Shown here one piece after another: positions 30,562-48,651 of a stretch of 64,000 nt of DNA. The notes beneath the pieces were generated by a model. It made no database searches and was not told the origin of the DNA. It saw only the letters and a program-made list of their open reading frames with translations. The DNA is from a virus. The translations under genes were made by a program, and so were the position numbers. The DNA is taken from positions 32,001 to 96,000 of the IMG/VR virus record IMGVR_UViG_3300046820_003928, one strand, 5' to 3'. Numbering within the stretch: the first letter of the stretch is position 1; every line of letters begins with the position of its first letter.

Positions 30562-31737
30562 TTATCCCATGAAGATTGCTTTGCCATTAGGGACTGGTAT
30601 CTTGGCAAGCTGCTTTGTTAGATTTTCTGCCCGAGTAGCTGCTGTCTCAATTAGCTTGTCATAGGTAAGTGTATCAAGCATCTCTCTAAGCTTTGTATTT
30701 AGGTTTGTCTTGTCTTCTCTTCCACGAGTAATCAGATCTGAGCCGTTCAGGGTTACAGTTCCTCCCGGGATTGGAAGTGTTCCAAATTTATTTCTAATGA
30801 GACCAAGCTGTTCCATGCAGAGAGCAAGCGTATATTGCCTAATCCATTGCTTGCCCATGCTATTTACACGTGTGTAGTCAACATTTCCGAAAGGAATATT
30901 TGAGAGATTGGACACGCCGTTTGTGGATTGATCTTCATAGTCTGGATTGAGCGGGTTTGCGTAAAAGCGAACTCTCACCCAGAGCTTATTTGGGACCTCG
31001 TTCAAGGAAGGGGTCGGATAGATTCGAAGATTTGTTCCGATTACCTTGTAGGAATAGTTCGATCTCCTGACTCTGTTTGAGATGTCAAGCATTCCCGCCC
31101 TTAGTACGTCTTCAAAGACAGGCAAGACGTAAAATATTGTCTCTGGGGTGAAGGATTCAAATGAAAAAGCGTTGTTCAGATAGTTGATAGCCGAAGTTGT
31201 ATCGAAGAATCGATAGGCTGCCTGCGGGCTGAAGTGAAAGACCTCCATTATCCTCATCTTTGTCTTGGGAGATTCATTGTGACTCCCGCTAAAGAGAGCT
31301 ATCCCGTCTCCGCCAAGAAGGTCATTGTAGAGGTTATAGTCCTGCTGACCAGGCTTAAGGGTTATGGACCCTGAGTAGTGATTGTATGATCCTCCGAGAC
31401 CTGCCTCTGTTGCATAGGGCTCAGCAAATCTTGCAAGATATTCAAGGCTCTCTCTTGGCATCTTGTTTGACGCCTCATCTCCAGATCCCGTGTTAAAACC
31501 GAGATATGTAAGAAGTTGAGATTTTGCCTGGTATTGATTTAGTATGTTACCATACTCCAGGGTGGCCTCTTCGAAGTTTCCCCAGACCATCTTTTTCGTG
31601 AGCTCAACAGAAAGAACGTCGTCTCCAAGCTTTCTCTTGACAAAGACAACCATTTTATCCGCATCAGTCTGGAAGACAGAGTCTAAATCGAATATCCCGA
31701 AAGGGGTAGGATTCAGGGTTGTGCTAAAAATTGACAT
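30562..31737 (-). CDS. Neck protein (gp13-like head-tail adaptor)
   Basis: RKLG..VLSVEL, WIRQYTLAL..EQLG.IR.KF..LPIPGG.VTLNG. Confidence 0.85.
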   Translation of the reverse strand: MSIFSTTLNPTPFGIFDLDSVFQTDADKMVVFVKRKLGDDVLSVELTKKMVWGNFEEATLEYGNILNQYQAKSQLLTYLGFNTGSGDEASNKMPRESLEYLARFAEPYATEAGLGGSYNHYSGSITLKPGQQDYNLYNDLLGGDGIALFSGSHNESPKTKMRIMEVFHFSPQAAYRFFDTTSAINYLNNAFSFESFTPETIFYVLPVFEDVLRAGMLDISNRVRRSNYSYKVIGTNLRIYPTPSLNEVPNKLWVRVRFYANPLNPDYEDQSTNGVSNLSNIPFGNVDYTRVNSMGKQWIRQYTLALCMEQLGLIRNKFGTLPIPGGTVTLNGSDLITRGREDKTNLNTKLREMLDTLTYDKLIETAATRAENLTKQLAKIPVPNGKAIFMG

Positions 31738-31780
31738 TTGCTCACCCACATTCTAGAAGTAAATAGGCTGCAAACGCAAG

Positions 31781-31808
31781 TCAAGCGCCCAAGATTTTGG
31801 ACGCTTGA
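31781..31808 (-). terminator. Putative intrinsic terminator
   Basis: TCAAGCGTCCAA-AATC-TTGGGCGCTTGA then CTTGCGTTT on the minus strand. Confidence 0.5.
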
Positions 31809-32807: not shown

Positions 32808-34550
32808 CTATCCCTTAATGCACATCTGAACGAAAGATCGCAAAGTGATCTCTGAGATCGTTTCTGGCTTGTCCAGAATGTTCCAGATTTCTTTCTTTGA
32901 CCTGTCGTCCAAGTCGCTTGGTAGCAGTGAAACAAACTGTTTTTCACTCCTGGATGCGAGTAGATCCCTCATATGAGTTCCGGATATTCTTTCTCCGCTA
33001 GAAAGCTGGACATTTTTTACGAAGACGGGTTCAATTCTCCCAGTGCCGTACTGGACTGGATAGTATTTCTGCAGAGACTCTGGAGAAAATCTGTCCTTAT
33101 CGTCTTCTCCTGCATAGAGTCTAAAAAAGACCTCAGGATCGTTAGCGTATGATCTTATTGCGCCTCTTGTGTCTCCCACAGGTTCTGCGCTGTAGCTAAT
33201 GTCTACATTTTTAGGAAGAATTGGTTCAAGATATCTCTTCCATATTTTTATCATGTCTGAACCAGAGATCTGGACTCCTCCGCTCTCTCTTGATTTTACT
33301 GAAACAATGAGAAATACCTTGTCGTTCTCTCTTGCAGCTTGCTCAATAACTGCCCAGTGTCCCTTGTGAACTGGTTTCACTGCCATCGGGACGACTCCGA
33401 TACTGACAGATCCTCTTCCCTTTCCTAGCCCGACTGCCTGTCGCTTTCCGAGAATATTACGAACAGCAGCAAGAGCGTCTTCTTGAATGTTTATGAGATT
33501 TTTTCTATCATTTTCTACGCCGACTGTAGCAAAGTCTTCCCTTGACATCGAAAAAACAATCTTAGAAAGGAAGGAGATTGCATCACCCATCGGTTCATCG
33601 TCAAGGTCGTCTTCATCAATTTTATTTCTAATGAACTTTGAAAGTTTTTCGTAATAAACATTCTCTTCTTCTGCAGATTTCTCACCAAACTCTTCTTGCT
33701 TCTTGGCACGTCTCGCTTCCTGGTCGTGCTGATCAGCCCGGGACGTCTTGAATAGCTTTCCAGTAAATCTTGTAGTCTGGCCGGTTTCTGGATCAGCAAT
33801 CGGAGAAACCACAACACCCTCAGCATCTCCACCAAGAGAAGAAGTAAAATCAGACAGAACATTAACAAAGGTGTCCAGAACTCCTTTCCAGTTCCCCCTT
33901 GAAATAAAACTGTCTATCTCTTCACTTAGATTCTCAAATCTTGTGCGAATACTGCTATCTTTGCACCCGTCGATAATTGAATCTGTAGAATCAAGTCTTC
34001 CTTCAAATATGACGGGATAAGCTTCGAGGTCAAGTGCACGTCTAAATTCTTCTTTTCTTTGTGTATCGTTTTCAAACTCTGCAAGAGATGTGACCCTGCC
34101 TCCTCTAAGGGAGTATGTTGTAGGTCCAAACCCAGTCAAAAATAGACCGCCTGTCTTTTCATAGCTCCTTGAAATTGTCGGCTTTCTCTGGATGAACTCA
34201 ACAAAAAATTCATAGTCCCTAGGAATTTTTGATGTTTGCGGGTGGACACGTGCAAGATGATCATGGACAAAAGAATACTGGCTTCTTCCTGCTGACTGTC
34301 TCTCTATTTCCTTTTCTCTGCCTAGCCCCTTTAGGCCGGCAAATTCCTCAGGAAAAACAACGTTTTCCTTGTATGAGACTATCCAGTTGTTTAGATAGCT
34401 CTTAGGATCAAAAGGCTGATCATTTCTAATAAGAGTAAGCTTTGTACCATCAAGCTTCTCTTCAACAACCATGTATTGATTGCAAAATTCTTTGGCTGCA
34501 GAATTTGATGTGATAGTCTTGACAATCTTTGGAATTGAAATATCAAGCAT
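32808..34550 (-). CDS. Fusion of ATP-dependent ligase-like nucleotidyltransferase and HxGH (cytidylyl/NMN adenylyl) transferase domains
   Basis: N-terminal EEKLDG (motif I), FFVEF, AEGVVV (IV), LFK (V). C-terminal Rossmann VKPVHKGH...DKVFLIVS...ISGTHMR. Confidence 0.75.
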   Translation of the reverse strand: MLDISIPKIVKTITSNSAAKEFCNQYMVVEEKLDGTKLTLIRNDQPFDPKSYLNNWIVSYKENVVFPEEFAGLKGLGREKEIERQSAGRSQYSFVHDHLARVHPQTSKIPRDYEFFVEFIQRKPTISRSYEKTGGLFLTGFGPTTYSLRGGRVTSLAEFENDTQRKEEFRRALDLEAYPVIFEGRLDSTDSIIDGCKDSSIRTRFENLSEEIDSFISRGNWKGVLDTFVNVLSDFTSSLGGDAEGVVVSPIADPETGQTTRFTGKLFKTSRADQHDQEARRAKKQEEFGEKSAEEENVYYEKLSKFIRNKIDEDDLDDEPMGDAISFLSKIVFSMSREDFATVGVENDRKNLINIQEDALAAVRNILGKRQAVGLGKGRGSVSIGVVPMAVKPVHKGHWAVIEQAARENDKVFLIVSVKSRESGGVQISGSDMIKIWKRYLEPILPKNVDISYSAEPVGDTRGAIRSYANDPEVFFRLYAGEDDKDRFSPESLQKYYPVQYGTGRIEPVFVKNVQLSSGERISGTHMRDLLASRSEKQFVSLLPSDLDDRSKKEIWNILDKPETISEITLRSFVQMCIKG

Positions 34551-35841
34551 TGAGAATTCCTCTGATTAGCCTGCGTAGCCCTTCTTCAAGTTCAACTGGC
34601 GCAAGCTCTTCATCGTCACTAGCGAGCGAGCCTCTATCCGCCATTTTCAGCTTGAATCTTTTATAATATTTCTCAAGCATTGCCTCAATCTCTTCAGGAG
34701 GTAGCACTTCATTGAGAACATCATCAAATCCAAAAGATCTAATTGCAGCAACAGCAGCTGCCTTTGGCTTGATGTCCTTGGCCTCACTATACGTGCTGAT
34801 CTCTTGTCCGTGATCACCTATAAGCTTATACAAAAAAGATTTAAGAACTTTCCCACAAAACTTCCTGCCCTCGGGATCTGGTAGAAGATTCTCTCGCATA
34901 ATATCGAGTAATCCTAAAAAGGATCTCATCTTCTCAAGATCCTCAGGCTCAGCAGAAAATCCAAAGGCTGCCTCGAAGATTTTTTCAGCATCAGTCACGT
35001 ATTTTTTCTCGCTAGGCTGCGTCACCTTGTAGACAGGCTGCCCCTCGTGTTCATAATCTTGCTTTGTAAGACGCGTTGTCCCTAGACCCTTGTCAACTGC
35101 AAGAGACTGCATATGGAGATCTGGTCCGGGCTCTTTCACAAGTCTTAGCTTTTCTTTTGTCGAAGCTGGGGTAGCAATATGTCCAGAGACACGAGATCTG
35201 ATTGATACGAGAGACTGCAACAGGTATTTGTGAAAAACTCCCTTGACTGACTGCTGAACATCTCGCCAGTTGGATGAGTGACTCAATTTGACCCATGATT
35301 TTAATGCTTTAGAAGTCTTCTCATCCTCTCCCTGCACTGGAATAGGTTGTGGCATAAAGTCAAACTGAATATATGGATTTCCCTTTCCATCCACGTACTG
35401 AAAGATTGTATTTGTGCCCCTATCATTGGCAACATTTTCGTTTGGCTGGATCTTCGTTCCAATAATCTTAAATTTGGATCCGAGCATCGATCCCTTGTTT
35501 TGATCGAGGAACTTTATTAACGAAGATCCGCGCTCTCCTGCTTGCGGGATGTAGATGTCAAGATCGCTAAAGGTCTCTTTATAAAATGAGAAATCCTCGT
35601 CGCTGATGCTAGGGTCAACGATGTGCTCAGTTGAACCGCCAAAGATCAAAAGATCACTGAAGTAGCTCTCAAGTTCGGGCCAAAGCAACTTGCCAAACAT
35701 TGATGAAAATCCATCATTGAGAGCAGACAGCATTTCTTTGATATCTGCAATAAATCGATTTCTAGCGTTCTCTGATTTGAATTTAAGAGAATTTCCAGAG
35801 ATCAGTTTGCCATCAAGATCATAACGATAATTTCCACCCAT
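34543..35841 (-). CDS. Pol-beta-superfamily nucleotidyltransferase
   Basis: IFGGS...FSDLDIYI...YIQFDF acidic triad; MGGN start. Confidence 0.65.
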   Translation of the reverse strand: MGGNYRYDLDGKLISGNSLKFKSENARNRFIADIKEMLSALNDGFSSMFGKLLWPELESYFSDLLIFGGSTEHIVDPSISDEDFSFYKETFSDLDIYIPQAGERGSSLIKFLDQNKGSMLGSKFKIIGTKIQPNENVANDRGTNTIFQYVDGKGNPYIQFDFMPQPIPVQGEDEKTSKALKSWVKLSHSSNWRDVQQSVKGVFHKYLLQSLVSIRSRVSGHIATPASTKEKLRLVKEPGPDLHMQSLAVDKGLGTTRLTKQDYEHEGQPVYKVTQPSEKKYVTDAEKIFEAAFGFSAEPEDLEKMRSFLGLLDIMRENLLPDPEGRKFCGKVLKSFLYKLIGDHGQEISTYSEAKDIKPKAAAVAAIRSFGFDDVLNEVLPPEEIEAMLEKYYKRFKLKMADRGSLASDDEELAPVELEEGLRRLIRGILNA

Positions 35842-35865: not shown

Positions 35866-37278
35866 CTATCGTGAAATAGTAAAAATCTTTGATCCTGCAC
35901 CCCAGATCCTAAAAACTCGGGATTCTGATGCTATCTGTCGCTCAGATTTTCCATCTCTTGCTCTGAACTTAAATCGATCAAACCTGCTTCTGAGATCTGA
36001 GTACCAGTAGTCAGGACCCGTTGATCCCACTTCGACAAATCCCGACTTTAGATACCCTTCTCCCTTTCCGACTCGACGATCGACGTAAGTCATCAATCCT
36101 TGTTTTTCAGATTCTACTGCATATTTGTAAGCCACACTAGAAATTCTCGACAATCCTCCTGGAATATTCCATCCGGGAGCAATTGCAAATCTTGAGATCT
36201 CAAGCCATTCATTCCACTTTTTCTGTCGTGGCGCCCGCAAAGACATACAAGCAACAATCTCGCCCTTGTGCTCTAGCCCCCACGCGATCTTTGCTACTGC
36301 ATACCCAGACAGGTGGCTTCTTTCAAAAAACTGTCGCTGCGTATGAGCGTCAACTTCTACAATCTTGCACTGTCTTGCTCCAGCGTGATATTTAAAAAGA
36401 CCTAGACGACTAAGGATCATACCTTTGACAATCTCCTGTCGATCTTGCCATTCATCTTGAAAAATCTGTAAGAGTCGAACTCCTGCAGCATCTGCAAGAT
36501 TTGCCTTTATAGAATGTGCTTTAGGGTCACACCCAGTTTTTGCCTCAGAGTGAAAATAGAGACCGTGACACTCGATGCCAAGATTCTTCTCTGGAACAAA
36601 GATGTCAATCTCTTTCGGGGCTATTACAGTTCTGTCTCCCCTTCTTGTCTGTATGCCAAGATCTTTGATCCAGGACTCGACCTCAATCTGCCATTGAGAC
36701 GCTGTGACTGGGTGACAGGTCTCACAGAGGGATCCTCGTTCAAATGCTTGCAAAGTCTTCTGCTGGATATCTCCACAGGTTTTGCATCTGAGTTCAAGAT
36801 ATTGACGCTGTCTGCTAAAATATTCATGCAAAGGAGTTAGAAGCTTAAAATCAGAATCTCTTTCCTCGATTCGTGATGCTATCGTCTCTTTCCCCAGCCG
36901 CTTTGAGATGCTGATGCGTGCCCGAGTGACATCATCGTGCCTGCGACCAAAAAAGGGATTTCCGGATCCAGATACCTTGTTAGAAATTTCTCTAATGCGA
37001 GAGTCAGTCTGCGCCGTTTTTCCCTTGTTCCATGATTCAGCCCTTCCTCCCTTTGCGCCGCCTTCTCTAGCTGCAATTCTGGAACACCCTTGACAGTATT
37101 TCTTAAACTGGAAAGAAGAGTATCTCGTTAAAGATCCACATGAAGCGCAAAGGGGTCGCACATCATGATGATGGAACTTTATTGTATATTCCTCTCCTGA
37201 CATGCCATGAGACTTCTTGATATGGTTTGACAGAGATTTACCATCAGGAAAATCAGCATCGCATCCAAGACACTTCAT
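35866..37278 (-). CDS. Hef-like homing endonuclease: Zn fingers + NUMOD + PD-(D/E)xK nuclease + GNAT/Mom-like C-terminal domain
   Basis: C2H2 N-terminus, GNPFFGRRH, EIDIFVPEKNLGIECHGLYFHS, LEISRF...TYVDRR.G.G.GY..SGF. Confidence 0.7.
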   Translation of the reverse strand: MKCLGCDADFPDGKSLSNHIKKSHGMSGEEYTIKFHHHDVRPLCASCGSLTRYSSFQFKKYCQGCSRIAAREGGAKGGRAESWNKGKTAQTDSRIREISNKVSGSGNPFFGRRHDDVTRARISISKRLGKETIASRIEERDSDFKLLTPLHEYFSRQRQYLELRCKTCGDIQQKTLQAFERGSLCETCHPVTASQWQIEVESWIKDLGIQTRRGDRTVIAPKEIDIFVPEKNLGIECHGLYFHSEAKTGCDPKAHSIKANLADAAGVRLLQIFQDEWQDRQEIVKGMILSRLGLFKYHAGARQCKIVEVDAHTQRQFFERSHLSGYAVAKIAWGLEHKGEIVACMSLRAPRQKKWNEWLEISRFAIAPGWNIPGGLSRISSVAYKYAVESEKQGLMTYVDRRVGKGEGYLKSGFVEVGSTGPDYWYSDLRSRFDRFKFRARDGKSERQIASESRVFRIWGAGSKIFTISR

Positions 37279-37364: not shown

Positions 37365-38153
37365 TCAAGAGAATCTAACCACCTCAAGATGCGCTTCGTT
37401 CTGGATGCACCATGTCATTGTTGCACGCCACTTTTCACGGTCGGTGTCAGTCTCATGCCCTTTCACCTCGTACAGAGTCTTTCTGTCAAGCGTCAGAAAG
37501 TCTGGGATGTAGACCCGCTCGACACCGTTCGGGTCCACGTACGGGATGCGGATGCCGTGCTGCTTGGTGACAGGAATATTCCGTTCGATGCACTCATCGA
37601 GGAATCGAGTCTCCCAGGAGGAGTGCATGTATTCCTCCCGACCGGTGAATGGGTTGAGCTTCCACTCGGTTCTGTAGGGCGCCTGGGGACCGATCTTGCC
37701 CTGCTCGAGGAGATCACAAGCTCGGGAGGACTGCAGCTTTCTCTTCCCAGCTGATTCGGGCTTCTGCCAGTTCTCGGCGTTTGTTTTTGCTGAGCGCTTT
37801 CGGACTTCAGGGGTGATGTGCGCTCGCATAAGCGAAGCTTGATTTGTTGCCTTGTCTTTATTTTCTCCGTAAAAACGGACTAAGTTTTTACGATTCTTCT
37901 CGCCAATTTTCGCTTTCGATTCATTTGTCAGACGACCCTCAATTCTTGCCGAGTGGCCGTGAATATACCGCAGAAATCTCATTCCCTGAGATCTTGAGAA
38001 GGGTACATCGAGTCCGCAGCCACATTCACACTTTGGGTTGACTCCTCCGTGTATGTAGTTTAGAAGATAACTTTCGTAAGAAGTGTTGTGTGCCCGGAGC
38101 ACGTGTGGTGCAAGACGTTCGAAATCTTTCTGGCAGATTTTGCATGATTCCAT
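37365..38153 (-). CDS. Homing endonuclease-like protein (Zn finger + TnsA-like PD-(D/E)xK)
   Basis: CKIC...H...H, CECGCG, HSSWETRF, IPY......YIPDF.....LYEVKG. Confidence 0.75.
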   Translation of the reverse strand: MESCKICQKDFERLAPHVLRAHNTSYESYLLNYIHGGVNPKCECGCGLDVPFSRSQGMRFLRYIHGHSARIEGRLTNESKAKIGEKNRKNLVRFYGENKDKATNQASLMRAHITPEVRKRSAKTNAENWQKPESAGKRKLQSSRACDLLEQGKIGPQAPYRTEWKLNPFTGREEYMHSSWETRFLDECIERNIPVTKQHGIRIPYVDPNGVERVYIPDFLTLDRKTLYEVKGHETDTDREKWRATMTWCIQNEAHLEVVRFS

Positions 38154-38189: not shown

Positions 38190-38232
38190 AAAAAAGAAAC
38201 AAAGATGGCGCCCTTTTTAGGGGGCGCCATCT
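38190..38232 (-). terminator. Intrinsic terminator after the major capsid gene
   Basis: AGATGGCGCCC-CCTAAAAA-GGGCGCCATCT followed by TTGTTTCTTTTTT. Confidence 0.85.
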
Positions 38233-38271: not shown

Positions 38272-40179
38272 CTATATAATATTCATGTCAAGACACGTGA
38301 CCGTCCCGTAGAAGTCGGCGCGGACCATCTTCTTGCCGTAACGGGTCATAACGCCCTTGCGAGGAGTGAAATCCTCGGGAGCAAAGATCGTCGGGGTGAC
38401 GATGAGTGGGACGTAAGGAGCGTAGACATAGCCTGTCTCGAGGTAGCTGCCGCCCTTGTAGCCGACAAGAACCTTGTTACGGGGGAAGTAAGGGTCCTTG
38501 TAGACGGTGAAGCGGTTGCTCAGGGTGCCGATGGGGGTGGCGCCGATGGACATCGAGCCGCCGACCTGGCCCTGGCCATCGATCGAGTAGTTGGGCTTGT
38601 AGAGAACCGAAGCCTCGAGGACGGTGGCGACATCGGGTGAAACCACGATGAAGTTGGCCGAGCCGCGAAGGGTCTTGCGGTGGATCTCGTTAGCGACGTC
38701 GATGATGGTCTCGATGAGGGTCTCGTACCACTCGCGGACGGTGCCTGTGAAGGCAGGGCCGGGCTGCGTGGAAGAGGAGCGAGAGATCTCAGCGCCTGTG
38801 GTCTTGTTGACGAAGCGACCTGGTGCACGGCTCCAGTAGTAGTTGGCGCCACGAGCCTCGGTGAGGAGGTCGTTGAGGATCTCACGGTCGATCTCAAGAG
38901 CGATCTGCTCGGAGAGGATCTGGGTGAGCTCGACCTCTGCATCCATCGAGTGGTATGCGTTGAGGTCCTGGGCCAGCTCTGGTGACCAGCGAGCGCGCAG
39001 CTTGCGGGTTGTGGCTGTGACTGGGATGCTCTCGATCTTGATGTCGATCTCGGGGATGACAACCTGGGGCTGTGTAGCAAAGTCAGACTCGAACGAGGGG
39101 ATCGTCAGAGTTGATGCATCAGAGCCGTCAACGTTGAGCGAGTCAGCGATGGCGTATGATGCTGTGAGGTAGACAGCTGAGGTTGCTGCAGCGCCTGGGA
39201 TGTATGTACCAGAGACAACTGTAAGAACTGCTGCGCCGGCGGAGCCAGAGGGAAGCAGGGGGTTGGGGGTGAAGATGCCACCGCTGTAGGTGCCGAGCTG
39301 GTTGAGACGACGAACGTTGAGGATGTTCTGGCCGCCCTGGAAGGTCTCACCAGGAACTGCAAGGCCTGAAGTGCCTCCTGCAGAGTGAAGGGCGATCTCC
39401 TTGACCTGATTGAGGTCAACGTTTGATGGGAAGGAGGCAACGCTGAGGACCAGGAACTGGAACTGACCGGTGGAAGCTAGTGTACCATCAGCTGCATCTG
39501 TCTCGATAAGCGAGGTGATCTGTGGGTCGAACTGGAGGAAGCGACCGTCTGTACCAGTTGCAAAGGCCTTTGCAGCGTTGGTGAGTGTGGTGCCGCCCTG
39601 CCAGGAACCCGAGGCGAGGAGACCAACGCCGGTGGAGCTGGTGTGCACCTTTGTGAAACCGGTGCCGACGAGATCGTACTGGCCGCCGGTTGCGAGTGAA
39701 CCAGAGCGGATTCCCTTTCCGGTTGGGTTGTTGTAGATCGACTGACCACCCTTGTAGGTTGCGCCTGAGGTTGAGACGCCAGTCTGGAGGTTGGCATCGC
39801 CACCGACGTCTGAGCCGTAGGTGTAATCCAGGTAAAACAGGAGACCGGATGGGAGGCTCATTGGCTGGATGGAGACGAGCTCGTTAGCAACGAGACCGCC
39901 GAAGACGCGACGGACAATGGGGAAGGCGATGTTGGTGAAGCCACGGATATCACCGGAGCCAACTGCATTGGCGCCGCCGGTGCCGAGGGAGTTGACCTCG
40001 CGGAGGACCTGGGCTGCCTGGTTCTCCATGAGGCGGGCCATGTTGTCACGCTTGACGCCATCGAGACCGCGGAGGAGACCGGTGCGTGTCCACTTCTCGA
40101 TGAGGCGCTTGCCCTCCTCAGTCACATTACGATCGGAAATGCCCTCAGTGAGCATGTTGAGTGAAAAAGACTTAGACAT
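38272..40179 (-). CDS. Major capsid protein (gp23-like) with large insertion
   Basis: PIVRRVFGGLVANELVSIQPM..PSGL.FYL, RKLRARWSPELAQDLNAYH.MDAEVEL, YAPYVPL, F.PRKGVMTRY; strong C-ending codon bias. Confidence 0.97.
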   Translation of the reverse strand: MSKSFSLNMLTEGISDRNVTEEGKRLIEKWTRTGLLRGLDGVKRDNMARLMENQAAQVLREVNSLGTGGANAVGSGDIRGFTNIAFPIVRRVFGGLVANELVSIQPMSLPSGLLFYLDYTYGSDVGGDANLQTGVSTSGATYKGGQSIYNNPTGKGIRSGSLATGGQYDLVGTGFTKVHTSSTGVGLLASGSWQGGTTLTNAAKAFATGTDGRFLQFDPQITSLIETDAADGTLASTGQFQFLVLSVASFPSNVDLNQVKEIALHSAGGTSGLAVPGETFQGGQNILNVRRLNQLGTYSGGIFTPNPLLPSGSAGAAVLTVVSGTYIPGAAATSAVYLTASYAIADSLNVDGSDASTLTIPSFESDFATQPQVVIPEIDIKIESIPVTATTRKLRARWSPELAQDLNAYHSMDAEVELTQILSEQIALEIDREILNDLLTEARGANYYWSRAPGRFVNKTTGAEISRSSSTQPGPAFTGTVREWYETLIETIIDVANEIHRKTLRGSANFIVVSPDVATVLEASVLYKPNYSIDGQGQVGGSMSIGATPIGTLSNRFTVYKDPYFPRNKVLVGYKGGSYLETGYVYAPYVPLIVTPTIFAPEDFTPRKGVMTRYGKKMVRADFYGTVTCLDMNII

Positions 40180-41593: not shown

Positions 41594-42139
41594 TTATTCT
41601 TGACTAAGTCTTGCAATTTTTAGCTTTTTTCTTGTTCTTTCTCGAAGATCGGGATTAACAGCGTCTACAAATCGAAAGGGAGCCTGATCTGTCACAGGGT
41701 TTGCTTTGACATCTCCCATTGACCACCCGCGTGGATCGACATCGACGACGCCTGGTGCAACAGTAAAAGAGGGATTTGAAGATGTCCCACCAAGAGCAGG
41801 TCCGTCAAATTTTCTCATTGGAAAAGGAACGATTCCAGAAAGTGTAGTTCTAGGAGTCGCTGAGTTCTCTGCGAGATCTAATCGATTCTTTGCCATTGTG
41901 AATCGATCAGTTCTTGAGAACGGTTCAGGTCTTTTTGCAAGGTTGCCATAGCTAACTTTTTTATTTATGAGGGCTCTCAGATTTAGTCCAGAATCACTAT
42001 CATCATACGCTTCTTCTTCATCACTGTTTTCTGTATTGTAGGGAAATTTATCACCAGATTTCTCTGGATTTTGAAATCCCTTCCTTCCAGTAAACCCATA
42101 GCCAGCGCCAGTCCTTTGATCGTGGACAAATTTTGGCAT
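41594..42139 (-). CDS. Hypothetical head-module protein
   Basis: Operon-packed ORF overlapping upstream stop (TGATG). Confidence 0.6.
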   Translation of the reverse strand: MPKFVHDQRTGAGYGFTGRKGFQNPEKSGDKFPYNTENSDEEEAYDDSDSGLNLRALINKKVSYGNLAKRPEPFSRTDRFTMAKNRLDLAENSATPRTTLSGIVPFPMRKFDGPALGGTSSNPSFTVAPGVVDVDPRGWSMGDVKANPVTDQAPFRFVDAVNPDLRERTRKKLKIARLSQE

Positions 42140-43542: not shown

Positions 43543-44148
43543 TCACTTCCAGGATTTGATCTCATTGAAGATTCTATTGATGCGATCAGATCTATTAAAG
43601 GTTGCACGAAGATCGACAGGATTTATTGATCTTGACTCACGAAGCATAAAGGCACCGGGTGTGCTCGGCTCAGAAACAATATCAAAACAGATCAGCTGGA
43701 AATCCTCTTGTACAACTGTGTGTCCGTCCTGCTGACGAGTAGATCCTACGCCTCTTGAGGAAATCCCAAGTGTAACTCCTGATTCGATGAGACTCTGCAA
43801 GATCTTTCCGCTAGGAGTATCTAGCAGCTCAACAGATCCATAAACAGTATCTCCCTCCATCCGGGCTTCTCTAACGATATGAGAGGCGTTCTTGAGTTCA
43901 ACAACAGAGGTGTCTGGGTGATCACACTCACCAAGCGCGCGATTTTCTCGGATGAACTTCTGGTAGTTGATTATCTCTCTTTCCAGTATGGCTCGTGGGT
44001 AGATTCTACCATTTTGATTGAGTGTATCAGATCTCTGGATTATGCCCTTAAGCATGATCTTGCCCCCGTTAAGGGCTCGAGACTCCTTGATGAGGTCAGG
44101 AGTAAGTGAGAGGGGTGTCCACTCAGTAAGCAGAGAAAGTGCGCTCAT
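43543..44148 (-). CDS. Prohead core protease (gp21-like)
   Basis: NQNGRIYP, ALGECDHP, TPSGKIL, GISSRGVGS, DIVSEPSTPGA. Confidence 0.95.
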   Translation of the reverse strand: MSALSLLTEWTPLSLTPDLIKESRALNGGKIMLKGIIQRSDTLNQNGRIYPRAILEREIINYQKFIRENRALGECDHPDTSVVELKNASHIVREARMEGDTVYGSVELLDTPSGKILQSLIESGVTLGISSRGVGSTRQQDGHTVVQEDFQLICFDIVSEPSTPGAFMLRESRSINPVDLRATFNRSDRINRIFNEIKSWK

Positions 44149-45002
44149 TTTGCCTCCTTAGATTCCTCGATGAGCTGTGATAGAGTCATTAGTCGACCAA
44201 GGGTCTCGTCATTTAGGTTCTTAGTATCAAGATCATTAACGCGCTTTCTTATGTTAGAGATGTTCTCCTGGATAATCTGATTTTTCTCATTCTTCTCAAT
44301 TTCATCTAGGCAGGCAAGAGAATCAACTTTAATCTTTTGAGCACGCTCAATCATCCGCTCTGTTGGTCCCACATCAGACTTCATGAGGACATAATCTCTT
44401 ATGATCGCCTGCTGATCCTGCGTAAGACTTCCTGCATACTTTTTATTGAATTTTTCATTGAGGATTTTGACAACAAGCGTGTCAACATTTTCGTTTACCT
44501 GAGGCATTGGCTCGGCGTGGGGCAATTCACTTCTTAGCATCTCAACGAGCTTTGTCTCAATTAGAACTGTCTTGGCAAGATCAGATCTATCGCCAAGCGC
44601 CCATTCATTGAGCGCCACCTGGATCGTAGCAAGGTCTCTGTAGTTTGAGATTCGACGGTGAAAAAACATGCTATCATTGAGCGTGTGATTGATATCCTTG
44701 ATTAGAAGAGACTTCTCTCTATCAAGCTTTGTAAAGTCAATACGACGCGCTGCTGCCTTCGACTCTGTCAGAATAACTGCAGATATGGCAGAATCAGAAA
44801 CTCTTGTTTTTGCAAGAGCATTGAACAGTCTGAACTCCTTAAATAGCTCAGTGTCCCTAGCAAACCGCTTTGAAACAATGTCAAGCGCGATTTGTGCCTT
44901 GCTTCTGTTTCCTTCGATTAGGTATGAAGAAACTGCACGAAGCAAGAGCTCATATACAATTCCAACATTTCTTTTCTTGTTATGATTGATTCCCGTTTCC
45001 AT
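44145..45002 (-). CDS. Conserved hypothetical protein between portal and protease
   Basis: HNKKRNVGIVYELL; helical; operon-packed. Confidence 0.7.
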   Translation of the reverse strand: METGINHNKKRNVGIVYELLLRAVSSYLIEGNRSKAQIALDIVSKRFARDTELFKEFRLFNALAKTRVSDSAISAVILTESKAAARRIDFTKLDREKSLLIKDINHTLNDSMFFHRRISNYRDLATIQVALNEWALGDRSDLAKTVLIETKLVEMLRSELPHAEPMPQVNENVDTLVVKILNEKFNKKYAGSLTQDQQAIIRDYVLMKSDVGPTERMIERAQKIKVDSLACLDEIEKNEKNQIIQENISNIRKRVNDLDTKNLNDETLGRLMTLSQLIEESKEAK

Positions 45003-47035
45003 TACTCTTTCTCCCCTGTCGTATTTGACACAGAGCCGATATTATCTAATGATCTAAGTATCCCTTCGACTTCAAGATCTCTTTGTTCAGTACTTCTTAT
45101 ACTTCTATCTAGAAATTTTTCAATAAAGCTATCCTTTTCGTCAATCTTTATCTTGTGTGCATTCTTGAGGGGATTGACGAGATCTTTCTTTTCTCCGTAG
45201 GGATGTGCTATTGAATCTCTTGGGTCTTTCTTGTCGGATCCAGCAAGATCATCATGGTGAGTCCTGGTCCCGATAGATCCTGTCATCTTTCTTCTTGATC
45301 TGTTGTAAATTTCTCTCTCTGCATAATCGGGTCCAACTTTTGTCTTCTCATCAAGAATCTTGCGAGGTGAAACCGGCGGAGATCTTGTGAGTCCAGCAAA
45401 AGCCTTCAAGGGCAATCCCTTTGAGGCAGCTATGCGAGACAGATCGATCTCTGGATCTCCGTCAAGCTCATCAATCTTCGGGAGTCCCCTTGGATTTCTG
45501 GTGTCTCCTGCTGTTATTGGAGTCTCTCCGCCGCCGGGACCAAGGTCAATACTTGAGGTCTCAGGGCCTGTCTCAGCGGACTCACCAGGAGATCTTCCTG
45601 GAGCACCTTCAGCTCCTTCCTCATCAGTCCCAGGTAGCTTAACAGCTTCGAGCTGGAGTGACTGCTCCTTGTCCTGCACAAGACCCTTGTCAATCGCATC
45701 AATCTCTTCGTCTGGCATCATAAAGATGTTCTTCTTGATCCACTTTAGATCGACAAGATTCTCAACGTTCTTTGCTGCCTGTGCAATGGTAAACTTTGTA
45801 TTGTAAAGCTCCAGCTTCTGTTGTTGTGCAATTGTTGAAGGATTTGTGAGCTTGAGCTCAAAATCAAGAAGATCGTGTCCGTCAAAACCGTTGCAATAAA
45901 GATGAACAATTGCAAGCTTGTTTAGCTCAGAAATGATAGTGCGCTGAATTCTGTTGATTGATCGAGAAAATCTAATGTCTTCCTGCGACAGTGTTGCTTT
46001 GGCGCCGAGACCCTCATCGTATCCAAGGTATGCCTTGGGAATCTTGAGAGCAGAAAACAGCTTCTTTTGGATGTACTGGACGTCTTCAATTGCTGCAGCG
46101 TTGGTTCCGCCTCCTAGATTTTCAACCTTTGTCCCAGTTTGTCCGCCTCGAACGGGAATAAAATAATCCTCATCGACGCTCATTGGATTATATCTGAGAT
46201 CAACTCGACCAGAAGTTCTATCGATAACCTGGTTTTTCTTAAGAGTAGCCTGTGCCTGCTCCATGTAGTTTGGAATTTCCTCAGGAGGAACGTTTCCTAC
46301 GTCAACATAGAAGACTCTTCTATCTGGTGATCTAACAATTCGATAGACAAGCATCGAATCTTCAATGAGAATAAGCTGTCTCCAGATTCTTCTAGCAGCC
46401 TCAAGAACAGAAGTTCCATAAGGTAAAAATGCATCATTTCCAAGAAGTCTAAAATGCGAAACTTGCCAATTCTGGAGAAGTTGATTTCCCTGTGTTACCC
46501 AGCGGTATCTAACAGCAAGCGGATCATTTTTATCAAATCCTTCCTCTCTTTCGATCTCATTTACAGCAATCGGAAAGACGTTGATGACGCCATGCTCAGG
46601 AGAGACGTCATTGAAAAGGAAGAAGTCTCCATACTTGCACATGTTCCTGGCCCATGAAGTCATGTTAAAGTTGACATTCAGGGTGTCATAAAAAAGCTCG
46701 TTTAGAAGCCTCTGGATCTGTGAATTCTCAGAGTAGATGTGAAGAATATTTCCCTTGTCATCGGGAGATACTGTCTCTTCTGAGTAGATGTCGAGGGCAC
46801 TTGCAATCTCAGGAGTATATTCCATTTCTTGGAAATCAGAATATCTCGCCATTCTATCATACGCGCCGTAGGCGCTCATTGCTGTGCTATAGACGTTGCT
46901 TTGTGTCTTTCTAAATAGCTCGTATGCAGACGTGCTTGTGTCGTTCGGCTTGTACTCTCTTACTCTTCTTTTAACGACAGGGCCACTGCGAAACAGGGAT
47001 GTGAGTCGATTGAAGATGTTTTCGTTTTTTGCCAT
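45002..47035 (-). CDS. Portal protein (gp20-like)
   Basis: LIEDSMLVYRIVRSPDRRVFYVDVGN.P, EDYFIPVRGG, DVQYIQKKLF.ALKIP, EDIRFSR.I.RIQ. Confidence 0.95.
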   Translation of the reverse strand: MAKNENIFNRLTSLFRSGPVVKRRVREYKPNDTSTSAYELFRKTQSNVYSTAMSAYGAYDRMARYSDFQEMEYTPEIASALDIYSEETVSPDDKGNILHIYSENSQIQRLLNELFYDTLNVNFNMTSWARNMCKYGDFFLFNDVSPEHGVINVFPIAVNEIEREEGFDKNDPLAVRYRWVTQGNQLLQNWQVSHFRLLGNDAFLPYGTSVLEAARRIWRQLILIEDSMLVYRIVRSPDRRVFYVDVGNVPPEEIPNYMEQAQATLKKNQVIDRTSGRVDLRYNPMSVDEDYFIPVRGGQTGTKVENLGGGTNAAAIEDVQYIQKKLFSALKIPKAYLGYDEGLGAKATLSQEDIRFSRSINRIQRTIISELNKLAIVHLYCNGFDGHDLLDFELKLTNPSTIAQQQKLELYNTKFTIAQAAKNVENLVDLKWIKKNIFMMPDEEIDAIDKGLVQDKEQSLQLEAVKLPGTDEEGAEGAPGRSPGESAETGPETSSIDLGPGGGETPITAGDTRNPRGLPKIDELDGDPEIDLSRIAASKGLPLKAFAGLTRSPPVSPRKILDEKTKVGPDYAEREIYNRSRRKMTGSIGTRTHHDDLAGSDKKDPRDSIAHPYGEKKDLVNPLKNAHKIKIDEKDSFIEKFLDRSIRSTEQRDLEVEGILRSLDNIGSVSNTTGEKE

Positions 47036-47037
47036 GT

Positions 47038-48651
47038 CTATCCTTTAAAGACCCACGCAAATTCAGGCGGGATCATTCCTGGTTGATTTCTTATTCCTCC
47101 AGTCACAAGATCTCTCTTTGCCTGGACGTTCCGTATGTGTTCGTTCCTCATAATACTATTCGATGCGCCGTTAAAGTGATTAGCATTAACTGCCATTCCT
47201 GCAAGCATTGCTCTATTTATTGCACCCGAATCTCGAGAATGTTCTGCAGATGCATCATAAAGCCACGATCCAATTGCAAGAGACATCACAAGATCATCGT
47301 TCTCTCCCTTCATAGCAGAAACCCTGTTGTCCTGCCAGACGAAAGTCTTAAGTTCATCATAAAAGCGAGAAGAATAAGTTACAAGCTGCTTGTTTCTTAG
47401 TAATTCTTCAAGTTTTGTAAGAATCAATCCGCGAGTCTTGCCGCTGGTGTTGAATCCTGCTGTCTCGGTCTCTCCAGGGGGAATATAGTCTCCGATATAG
47501 ACTGCATTGCTCTTCTGGTAATACATCCTCGGATAGTTTAGATCTCTCAGCTTTATGATAGTGGCATATCCGTATGTGTTATTTTCAGGGCAGAGCAATG
47601 CTTTGTTGTATAGCATCCCAAATTCATATAACAGGTCACCAAATCTATCTGGTGCAATTTTTCCACGGTATTCTGCAACTACGTCTCCGACTCCGAGATC
47701 TATCACGTGGAAAGTGGAATAGTCCTTTCCGTCACCGCGTGCAACATCAGCTGAAATTAGATACTTTGATTCTGCTAGTGGGTATCTCCAGATCCAGACG
47801 TTTCTATCGAGTCCCTTTCTATCAATCGGTGTCTTGATATTCGCATACACCCACTTTAGCTCGTCATCTCCGAGAAAAGTCTCTCCTGATGATGCGAAAT
47901 CGCATAAAAGCTCTTGTGCAACTTGACGAGAAGACATATTTCTTGTCTCCTTGTCAAACCACGATTGATCTCTTTCTGGGTGAACGTCCCAGTTAAGCTT
48001 GATGGGATTGAATTCATTGACCCCTGATTCAGCTTCTTTGTAGAGCTTATAGTACTGTCCTCCGACACCGTTCGGAGTTGACAAAATAATTGCCCTGCCA
48101 CCGGTTGACAAAGTAGGATAAAGACCTGTCCATAGCTCGTCAAAGTTTCTAACGAAGGCAGCCTCATCTACAATTAGCAGAGAGAGTGACTCAGATCGAC
48201 CAGCATCATCAGAAGTCGGAACTGCCTTAATAGAAGATCCGTGACTAAACTCTACAAATTGCTTGTTATCAGCCACAACCTGCGGAAGAACTAGCCAGGG
48301 CGGAAGATTTCTGAGGATTGTCTTTGTTTTCTTGATGAAGTTCTGTGCAACCTGCAGCTTTGTTGCAATAATAAGGATGTTTTTATCTTTTTGAAAGAGT
48401 GCCAGCCATACTGCGTATGCTGCAGTAAGTGTTGAAAGACCAAGCTGTCGACTTTTTACAACAATATTAAATCGATGATCTATGAAGTCTTTGACACAGT
48501 CATCCTGGAAGGGGTATGTCTTAAATGACAGAAGTCCCTTGGTTGGATGCTGGATCTTGACATAAGTGTTAAAGAAATAAACTGGATCCTTTCCACATCT
48601 GATTATCTCTTGGACCTGCTTTGTCTTGTTTGGTGCAGGTGATGTCGCCAT
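47038..48651 (-). CDS. terL: Terminase large subunit (gp17-like)
   Basis: KSRQLGLST, LLIVDEAAF, LSTPNG, ISADVARGDGKDYST, NDDLVMSLA. Confidence 0.95.
   Translation of the reverse strand: MATSPAPNKTKQVQEIIRCGKDPVYFFNTYVKIQHPTKGLLSFKTYPFQDDCVKDFIDHRFNIVVKSRQLGLSTLTAAYAVWLALFQKDKNILIIATKLQVAQNFIKKTKTILRNLPPWLVLPQVVADNKQFVEFSHGSSIKAVPTSDDAGRSESLSLLIVDEAAFVRNFDELWTGLYPTLSTGGRAIILSTPNGVGGQYYKLYKEAESGVNEFNPIKLNWDVHPERDQSWFDKETRNMSSRQVAQELLCDFASSGETFLGDDELKWVYANIKTPIDRKGLDRNVWIWRYPLAESKYLISADVARGDGKDYSTFHVIDLGVGDVVAEYRGKIAPDRFGDLLYEFGMLYNKALLCPENNTYGYATIIKLRDLNYPRMYYQKSNAVYIGDYIPPGETETAGFNTSGKTRGLILTKLEELLRNKQLVTYSSRFYDELKTFVWQDNRVSAMKGENDDLVMSLAIGSWLYDASAEHSRDSGAINRAMLAGMAVNANHFNGASNSIMRNEHIRNVQAKRDLVTGGIRNQPGMIPPEFAWVFKG

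Follow-up and report, generated by a model that had tools for sequence, protein, structure and literature searches.

Why would a T4-like phage keep, among the genes that build its head, two overlapping genes that between them encode three different nucleotidyltransferase folds? The question is posed by genes A and B of an uncultured marine T4-like ("Far-T4") phage, which lie in a 64,000-nt stretch (the window) of the 140-kb record IMGVR_UViG_3300046820_003928 (140420 bases, estimated to be 39% complete). Our answer, which we hold at about even confidence, is that the two proteins would constitute one nucleic-acid end-repair machine with three active sites, synthesized late, taken up by the prohead and delivered with the DNA on infection. 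It draws on the folds and their invariant catalytic residues, on the coupling and fusion of the two proteins across viral genomes, on synteny with head genes, and on the finding of homologues in the virions of one cultured phage.

34543-35841, minus strand: gene A, 432 residues from ATG; Pol-beta-superfamily nucleotidyltransferase, no Pfam family, PHROG phrog_19290
32808-34550, minus strand: gene B, 580 residues; ligase-like domain, helical linker and HxGH nucleotidyltransferase, PHROG phrog_27149

The two reading frames share 8 nt (ATGCTTGA), and the pair lies between the capsid gene (38272-40179) and the neck genes (30562-31749 and below), an overlap and a location that the initial annotation had described and that we confirm.

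Three nucleotidyltransferase folds in proteins A and B

The catalytic motifs of A are those of a Pol-beta-type enzyme and are distributed as follows.

35632-35643, minus strand: FGGS, A residues 67-70, the hG[GS] triphosphate-binding motif; G69 and S70 invariant or nearly so
35551-35565, minus strand: DLDIY, A residues 93-97, the DxD metal-binding carboxylates D93 and D95; invariant in 27 sequences, model strand 94-99
35353-35367, minus strand: QFDFM, A residues 159-163, the third catalytic carboxylate D161; Q159, D161 and F162 invariant, strand 157-165
35221-35283, minus strand: SHSSNWRD...KGVFHKYL, A residues 187-207, a helical region; S189, S190, D194, K200, H204, K205 and Y206 invariant

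An alignment of 27 relatives shows little or no variation at G68-G69-S70, D93/D95 and D161, and the AlphaFold2 (AF2) model of A (predicted local distance difference test, pLDDT, 88.5; predicted template modelling score, pTM, 0.85) places the catalytic residues on the structural elements expected of a Pol-beta nucleotidyltransferase, with a palm and a thumb-like region followed by a C-terminal helical domain of ~120 residues. The block at residues 187-207 probably takes part in binding the nucleoside triphosphate or the substrate. Foldseek matches of A are weak (E ~0.02) and lie nearly all within the superfamily (Cid1, TUT1, alarmone synthetases, MenT, CD-NTases and Pol lambda), with poly(A) polymerase and the CCA-adding enzyme also among the top fold matches. 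VIA, which is independent of Foldseek, places family X polymerases at the top (Pol mu, Z 7.3; Pol beta, 6.9; African swine fever virus (ASFV) Pol X, 6.6), superposing 164-188 residues within model residues 5-309 at a root-mean-square deviation of 3.4-4.4; terminal uridylyltransferases (TUTases), poly(A) polymerases and CCA-adding enzymes rank below these at Z 5-6.4, the TUTases falling within ~1 Z of the best family X matches. Because these Z values are middling, we take the Pol-beta-superfamily fold of A as settled and leave the subfamily undecided.

The likeness to family X, and especially to the minimal ASFV Pol X, lies in the superposing palm and thumb (Z 6.6-7.3), whereas A carries a 22-residue insert between GS and DxD and the additional C-terminal helical domain. 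No 8-kDa, fingers or helix-hairpin-helix DNA-binding domain is recognised in A, whose N-terminal part was not modelled separately, and a search of PDB sequences with the A profile finds no Pol X. Nor does Pfam assign a family to any of the 27 aligned relatives, even at E 10. The family of A comprises 719 clusters at 50% identity; its look-alike clusters in the Atlas are 100% viral, one related cluster carrying PF01909 on 33% of its members, and no relative is found in cellular genomes of the GTDB species set, so that the family appears to be large and viral only. Two of its members (P0253, 2078 residues, and P0256, 1304 residues) are fused to an Amidoligase_2 domain (PF12224), and P0253 additionally holds a second NTP_transf_2 domain and a DUF6934 domain.

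Protein B opens with a domain of the kind seen in ATP-dependent RNA ligases, continues with an all-helical stretch and closes with a nucleotidyltransferase of a different fold.

33726-34550, minus strand: B residues 1-275, ATP-dependent RNA-ligase-like adenylyltransferase domain, from invariant motifs and the Foldseek match to T4 Rnl2
34440-34463, minus strand: motif I, EEKLDGTK
34194-34211, minus strand: motif III, EFFVEF
33807-33824, minus strand: motif IV, AEGVVV
33723-33758, minus strand: motif V, KLFK
33432-33725, minus strand: B residues 276-373, all-helical, between the catalytic domains, from AF2 secondary structure
32853-33431, minus strand: B residues 374-566, HIGH-superfamily (HxGH) nucleotidyltransferase, NMNAT/PPAT-like, from profile search and VIA
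33357-33377, minus strand: KPVHKGH (H395-K-G-H398), with H398 invariant
32967-32987, minus strand: ISGTHMR (I522-SGTxxR528), with S523 and R528 nearly invariant

All 36 aligned sequences agree at K32, D34, G35, E114, E118, F119, E244, G245 and K268 of the ligase-like domain, and Foldseek with the AF2 model of B (pLDDT 89.8, pTM 0.82) returns T4 Rnl2 as the best match (2hvr, E 7e-8), followed by the ligase domain of fungal Trl1, archaeal Rnl3 and Naegleria Rnl (NgrRnl), all at probability 1.0. At the level of sequence the relationship is faint: Pfam RNA_ligase (PF09414) scores 21 bits on B, under its cut-off of 27, a few relatives carry PF09414 in precomputed tables, and an hhalign comparison of B with T4 Rnl2 is not significant (probability <1%), though motifs I and III align. 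The structure search shows no OB domain in the ligase part. T4 RNA ligase 2 (gp24.1, the product of rnlB; 2hvr/2hvq), the best structural match, is likewise encoded beside capsid genes, but on the strand opposite to the late genes; it lacks an HxGH domain, it has KxHG where B has KxDG, and motif V of B has only one invariant lysine.

Residues 374-566 of B are a complete small HIGH-superfamily domain. Profile search relates it to NadR-type NMNAT (E 8e-7), archaeal NMNAT (1.5e-6) and PPAT (2e-5), VIA matches it equally well (Z 12-13) to PPAT, NadD and NadM over ~150 of 157-185 residues, and phrog_3462, annotated as an NMNAT, matches residues 383-427. With NadM/NadR-type NMNATs and PPAT it has in common both signature motifs, HxGH and ISxTxxR, and the small Rossmann-like domain in its entirety, but it is fused to a ligase, where NMNAT-type enzymes are fused to a Nudix or kinase domain, and the NMNAT signature G[RK]FQP reads MAxKP in B's clade. 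All three folds that the initial annotation had read from the motifs are real, and their catalytic sites look intact.

Coupling of A and B and their place in the head module

The case for treating three active sites as one system comes from 80 IMG/VR viral loci found with the B profile, many of them close relatives whose counts are not independent events. The co-occurrence by which the initial annotation had set store is found: A and B are fused or adjacent in 63 of the 80, being fused in 29 (in the order B then A, 950-1350 residues) and adjacent in 34 (always A then B, with a gap of -13 to +57 nt, mostly overlapping), while ten loci have them 0.3-3.9 kb apart and seven show no A within the fetched flank. 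Fusions in the opposite order are also present (P0175, P0204), and A and B match the identical 21 cultured-phage records, those of Campylobacter Firehammervirus and of Vibrio Va1/phiKT1024-like phages. Because the two are fused in both orders across divergent clades, these genomes offer strong evidence that the three active sites would work together.

Some fused forms, of 1300 residues (L025:4117-8037, L038:9929-13831 and similar loci), apparently hold two tandem nucleotidyltransferase modules in the arrangement B-A'-A. An hhalign comparison of their middle 390 residues with A is not significant; Atlas look-alikes and a start, GGWR...ILSAMNKF directly after a Glu, that resembles the start of stand-alone A nonetheless suggest that this middle part is a second, diverged nucleotidyltransferase module. 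Residues 857-942 of the L025 protein also give a weak match (E 0.003) to the crAss001 auxiliary capsid protein.

The neighborhood of the pair is that of the head. The window's head module is encoded on the minus strand, with small core proteins and a scaffold also listed between the protease and the capsid gene.

47038-48651, minus strand: T4-type large terminase
45002-47035, minus strand: gp20 portal
43543-44148, minus strand: prohead protease, Peptidase_S77, T4 gp21 family (Pfam E 1.9e-27)
38272-40179, minus strand: gp23-type major capsid protein, 635 residues

Throughout the Far-T4 clade the order is major capsid gene, endonuclease genes where present, A, B and neck genes; in another clade the fused gene lies directly upstream of the terminase and portal genes; and in Campylobacter phage CP220 the gene for B adjoins that for a virion structural protein, two genes from the portal.

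Both proteins, moreover, end in a short peptide that follows a site of the kind cut by prohead proteases.

34546-34596, minus strand: C-terminus of A, VELEE followed by GLRRLIRGILNA; L-E-E site and 12-residue amphipathic tail, a helix at low pLDDT
32811-32858, minus strand: C-terminus of B, ISE followed by ITLRSFVQMCIKG; I-S-E site and 13-residue amphipathic tail, predicted helix 567-579

The two tails are conserved and co-vary by clade, ELEENVRRFVRF on A going with SESSIRYFIRESL on B in one clade and DESRxRKLNRLIEAVIW with DSRRRSSLLKILFESV in a second, and the fused forms retain a single tail. T4 gp21 cleaves after Glu in L/I-x-E. Here the head module, the sites L-E-E before G and I-S-E before I, and a gp21-family protease are found together, as for head cargo, and by analogy the Peptidase_S77 of the window is presumed to cut at the L/I-x-E sites of A and B. 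In every distinct fused protein each nucleotidyltransferase module starts directly after [L/F/I]-x-E, with GGWR or SGQSVA following, and stand-alone A proteins start M-GGN, so that a cut at the fusion sites would recreate the N-terminus of stand-alone A. The initial annotation had described the two C-termini as one shared tag resembling the N-termini of prohead-core proteins. The first half of that description stands, in that both proteins end in short conserved amphipathic helices that change in parallel from clade to clade; the second does not, the likeness being one of generic amphipathic helices, with core N-terminal helices that show no co-variation with the A and B tails across clades.

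A regular-expression scan of the 140-kb record finds that within the window only A and B carry the shared tail. By eye, a 181-residue head-module protein (41594-42139) is seen to end in a basic amphipathic tail (DLRERTRKKLKIARLSQE), and its homologues in two related loci (L031, L061) end in RLRRLIRAIHL, which closely resembles the window's A tail; possibly this is a third protein bearing such a peptide. What we propose for A and B resembles the course taken by the T4 internal proteins IPI-III and Alt, which are loaded into the prohead, trimmed by gp21 at L/I-x-E and injected with the DNA, but the T4 targeting peptide is N-terminal and the putative one of A and B C-terminal. An N-terminal capsid-targeting sequence like that of IPI-III is not found on them, the N-terminus of A, MGGN, being part of the conserved fold. 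The fused forms of 950-1350 residues also resemble the injected "polyvalent proteins" of phages as portrayed in passages of PMC5512222, which do not list RNA ligases among the component domains.

Experimental evidence on particles comes from a cultured relative. The virion proteome of Campylobacter phage vB_CcoM-IBB_35, obtained from particles purified on cesium chloride, lists 38 proteins of 210 open reading frames (Table S2 of PMC3322345). Among them are the products of gene 1-56 (44.4 kDa, 17% coverage), a homologue of A (A profile E 3e-80); of gene 2-25 (39.7 kDa, 2.9% coverage), which corresponds to the ligase domain and TKAH motif of a B homologue (E 6e-85); and of gene 2-24 (11 kDa, 23.7% coverage), the C-terminal piece of that homologue, which contains the ISAT motif and terminates as CP220 gp026 does. 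The homologues are 25-30% identical, and for comparison the same list gives the portal 2.5% and the protease 6.7% coverage (PMC3322345). The B homologue is a single reading frame of 503 residues in CP220 (L002) and two, of 339 and 97 residues, in IBB_35 contig 2 (L086); the split is either a pyrosequencing frameshift or real. Given the position in the head module, the L/I-x-E sites with a gp21-family protease, and this detection in virions, A and B probably also travel inside the capsid of the present phage. The virion delivery that had been proposed from the sequence gains support from the IBB_35 proteome and from the protease-type sites.

Layout and expression of the A-B unit

Between the capsid gene and A lie two genes for homing endonucleases, and two terminator-like hairpins bound the unit that they form with A and B.

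38203-38232, minus strand: strong hairpin resembling an intrinsic terminator, immediately downstream of the capsid gene, the upstream bound of the endonucleases-A-B unit
37365-38153: homing endonuclease, TnsA-like
35866-37278: homing endonuclease, NUMOD3/HNH-type
31781-31808, minus strand: terminator-like hairpin after the two small genes that follow B, the downstream bound of the unit

The endonuclease genes look like mobile insertions because many relatives lack one or both, and in relatives without them the capsid gene is separated from A by 24-100 nt, past a conserved terminator hairpin. On the other side, 3' of B, come the two small genes, the second hairpin and then the neck/adaptor genes. 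The capsid protein itself matches Pfam Gp23 mainly over residues 358-625 and has a site L-T-E, followed by G, at residue 12; its N-terminal half is rich in Gly, Ser and Thr, and the DNA encoding it has the highest GC content of the window (0.57).

The initial annotation had placed a late-type motif before the two genes, and this is not confirmed. The T4 late consensus TATAAATA has no match anywhere in the window, and a degenerate ATAGTTAG 28 nt upstream of A is the sole late-motif-like element there. Two other candidates were set aside: CTAAAAGC, which precedes both A and the gene that follows B, is no more frequent than chance predicts, and elements like ATATTTAG, found upstream of A in relatives, are not convincing in the window. 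No recurrent element was found upstream of late genes. That A follows soon after the capsid gene in relatives lacking the endonuclease genes, behind a conserved terminator hairpin, fits low-level read-through or a weak promoter of A's own, and hence a low-copy protein.

What the pair might do

We infer the chemistry and its setting as follows. Protein A, with two metals held by D93, D95 and D161, would extend a damaged 3'-OH end by one or a few nucleotides. In the Rnl2-like domain of B, K32 would be adenylylated by ATP, the AMP passed to a 5'-phosphate and the break sealed, while the NMNAT-like HxGH domain would bind ATP and a phosphorylated acceptor for an accessory nucleotidyl transfer. The C-terminal tails behind L/I-x-E would be head-loading peptides removed by the gp21-type prohead protease, and in the fused relatives this protease would cut the polyprotein into its modules. 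Restoration of 3' ends and sealing of broken nucleic acid is, by analogy, the most likely function, and RNA, given a ligase domain akin to RNA ligases, is a more likely substrate than DNA; the likeliest target would be host or phage RNA, especially tRNA cut by defense nucleases at the start of infection.

The closest parallel is RlaP, a Pol-beta-superfamily nucleotidyltransferase that, like A, is genomically tied to an RNA ligase. Predicted from gene neighborhoods (PMC7824862), it adds one or two nucleoside monophosphates to damaged RNA 3'-OH ends and is needed to restore tRNA function (bioRxiv 10.64898/2025.12.29.696909). By comparison A is larger, with a thumb like that of Pol X; in many phages it forms one protein with the ligase, and it sits in the head module with a protease-site tail. 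Membership of A in the RlaP family was considered and rejected: none of 27 members matches PF10127 even at E 10, and hhalign gives a probability of <1% for a relationship to the RlaP of T4, NrdC.11 (PF10127, 43 bits). Because this record, CP220 and Vibrio phage SRILMA hold no PF10127 gene whereas T4 has NrdC.11, A may fill the role of RlaP in these phages.

Several observations weigh against an injected machine that mends RNA. No partner of A and B that would heal 5'-OH or cyclic-phosphate ends is evident in five records searched for a Pnk-like kinase and for KptA, the kinase exceeding its family cut-off in one of the five and appearing weakly, below the cut-off, in one more. ARAGORN finds no tRNA or tmRNA gene in the 140-kb record, itself an estimated 39% of a genome. 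The predicted Pol-beta and ligase activities of both families are drawn from fold and motifs, and the best structural neighbors of A are family X DNA polymerases, not RNA-specific enzymes. In the Campylobacter phages the homologues of A and B are tailless and lie 65 kb apart; the 11 major virion gel bands of CP220 include neither protein; and at least one entry of the IBB_35 virion list, a QueC/ExsB homologue, is probably not structural. Finally, T4 rnlB also stands beside gene 24 and the capsid genes, on the other strand, and Rnl2 is not known as a virion protein, which weakens the argument from position.

The main rival arises because A has Pol X-like neighbors: the kit might repair the phage's own injected DNA. 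Protein A would then fill gaps in the manner of a minimal Pol X and B would seal nicks, possibly with a ribonucleotide on the 3' side, in a genome whose heavy modification would make it a poor substrate for host enzymes. Such a role is favored by the family X enzymes that head the VIA list for A over palm and thumb (Pol mu, Pol beta, Pol lambda and ASFV Pol X) and by the consideration that virion-borne enzymes would meet DNA first, and passages of PMC3322345 describe the DNA of Firehammervirus, which carries both genes, as inhibiting Taq and phi29 polymerases. Against it stand the ligase of B, which resembles RNA ligases (Rnl2, Trl1, Rnl3, Rnl5) and not DNA ligases and shows no OB domain, Pol X Z values that are middling and tied with those of RNA-specific TUTases, and the failure of the A profile and model to reveal a Pol X sequence in the PDB or an 8-kDa/helix-hairpin-helix DNA-binding domain. 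We consider repair of injected DNA unlikely.

It is a little less probable still that A and B are ordinary late cytoplasmic enzymes that never enter the head, their place in the head module being inherited synteny and their detection by mass spectrometry carry-over of late proteins made in abundance. The ligase might then moonlight in assembly, much as T4 Rnl1 (gp63) acts in tail-fiber attachment. The position of T4 rnlB next to gene 24, the QueC-like protein in the IBB_35 list, the CP220 gel and the tailless Campylobacter homologues are all as this would have it. It sits poorly, however, with the presence of three reading frames of the two families among 38 virion proteins out of 210, two of them at 17-24% coverage and so above portal and protease, with L/I-x-E sites at every module boundary of the fused forms, and with tails on A and B that co-vary.

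Least probable, and in our estimation improbable, is that the module acts on nucleotides or caps and not on breaks, its NMNAT-like domain making NAD+ or a related dinucleotide (to rebuild depleted NAD+, to NAD-cap RNA or to feed the ligase AMP from NAD+) and A making a nucleotide signal or NMPylating a protein, for although in sequence the HxGH domain is nearest to NadR/NadM-type NMNATs, phrog_3462 matches B, and CD-NTases, alarmone synthetases and protein NMPylases are among the weak Foldseek matches of A, in structure PPAT lies no farther from that domain than NMNAT does, the unfailing presence of an intact ligase in the same protein, like the polymerase-like thumb of A, argues for a nucleic-acid substrate, and neither NadV (NAMPT, PF04095), without which the known phage NAD+ salvage pair is absent, nor KptA/Tpt1 is found in this record or four large relatives (51-84% complete). 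A role of the HxGH domain in NAD salvage or rescue is unlikely because of these two absences. Of what the initial annotation had sketched, the three folds, their coupling and virion association gain support, and of the proposed counter-defense against tRNA-cleaving and NAD-depleting systems the NAD-depletion half is weak. Its broader suggestion of an undescribed system also survives in part. RNA ligase and Pol-beta nucleotidyltransferase repair pairs, T4 Rnl2, phage NMNATs and injected head proteins are already known, so that the RlaP paradigm and T4 rnlB take away from its novelty; but in the literature searched we found no published description of the nucleotidyltransferase family of A, of the ligase-HxGH fusion, of an obligate coupling or fusion of the three domains, or of capsid delivery with protease-site tails.

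Extending the end-repair machine proposed for A and B to its relatives, we tentatively suggest, as a possibility that we rate somewhat below an even chance, that in a widespread class of T4-like phages the head is loaded with a repair kit of three enzymes, by way of C-terminal peptides removed by the protease or of a polyprotein that is cut, and that the kit, once injected, mends RNA or DNA damage inflicted by host defenses before the phage expresses its own genes, with an HxGH chemistry new to repair (terminal-phosphate adenylylation, for example, or a coupling of NAD+ to ligation). Injected phage effectors such as T4 Alt and the virion RNA polymerase of N4 are familiar; if the kit is indeed injected, it would be the first case we have found of nucleic-acid repair enzymes pre-packaged in a phage, and it would explain how phages survive tRNA- and RNA-cutting defenses that act before any phage protein is made. 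It may also provide a biological setting for Rnl2-type ligases, for we know of no established role of Rnl2 in T4 infection. Beyond this, the work defines a large virus-only family of Pol-beta nucleotidyltransferases (the 719 clusters noted above) that has no Pfam model, and the C-terminal peptides proposed here to load the head could serve to carry foreign proteins into capsids.

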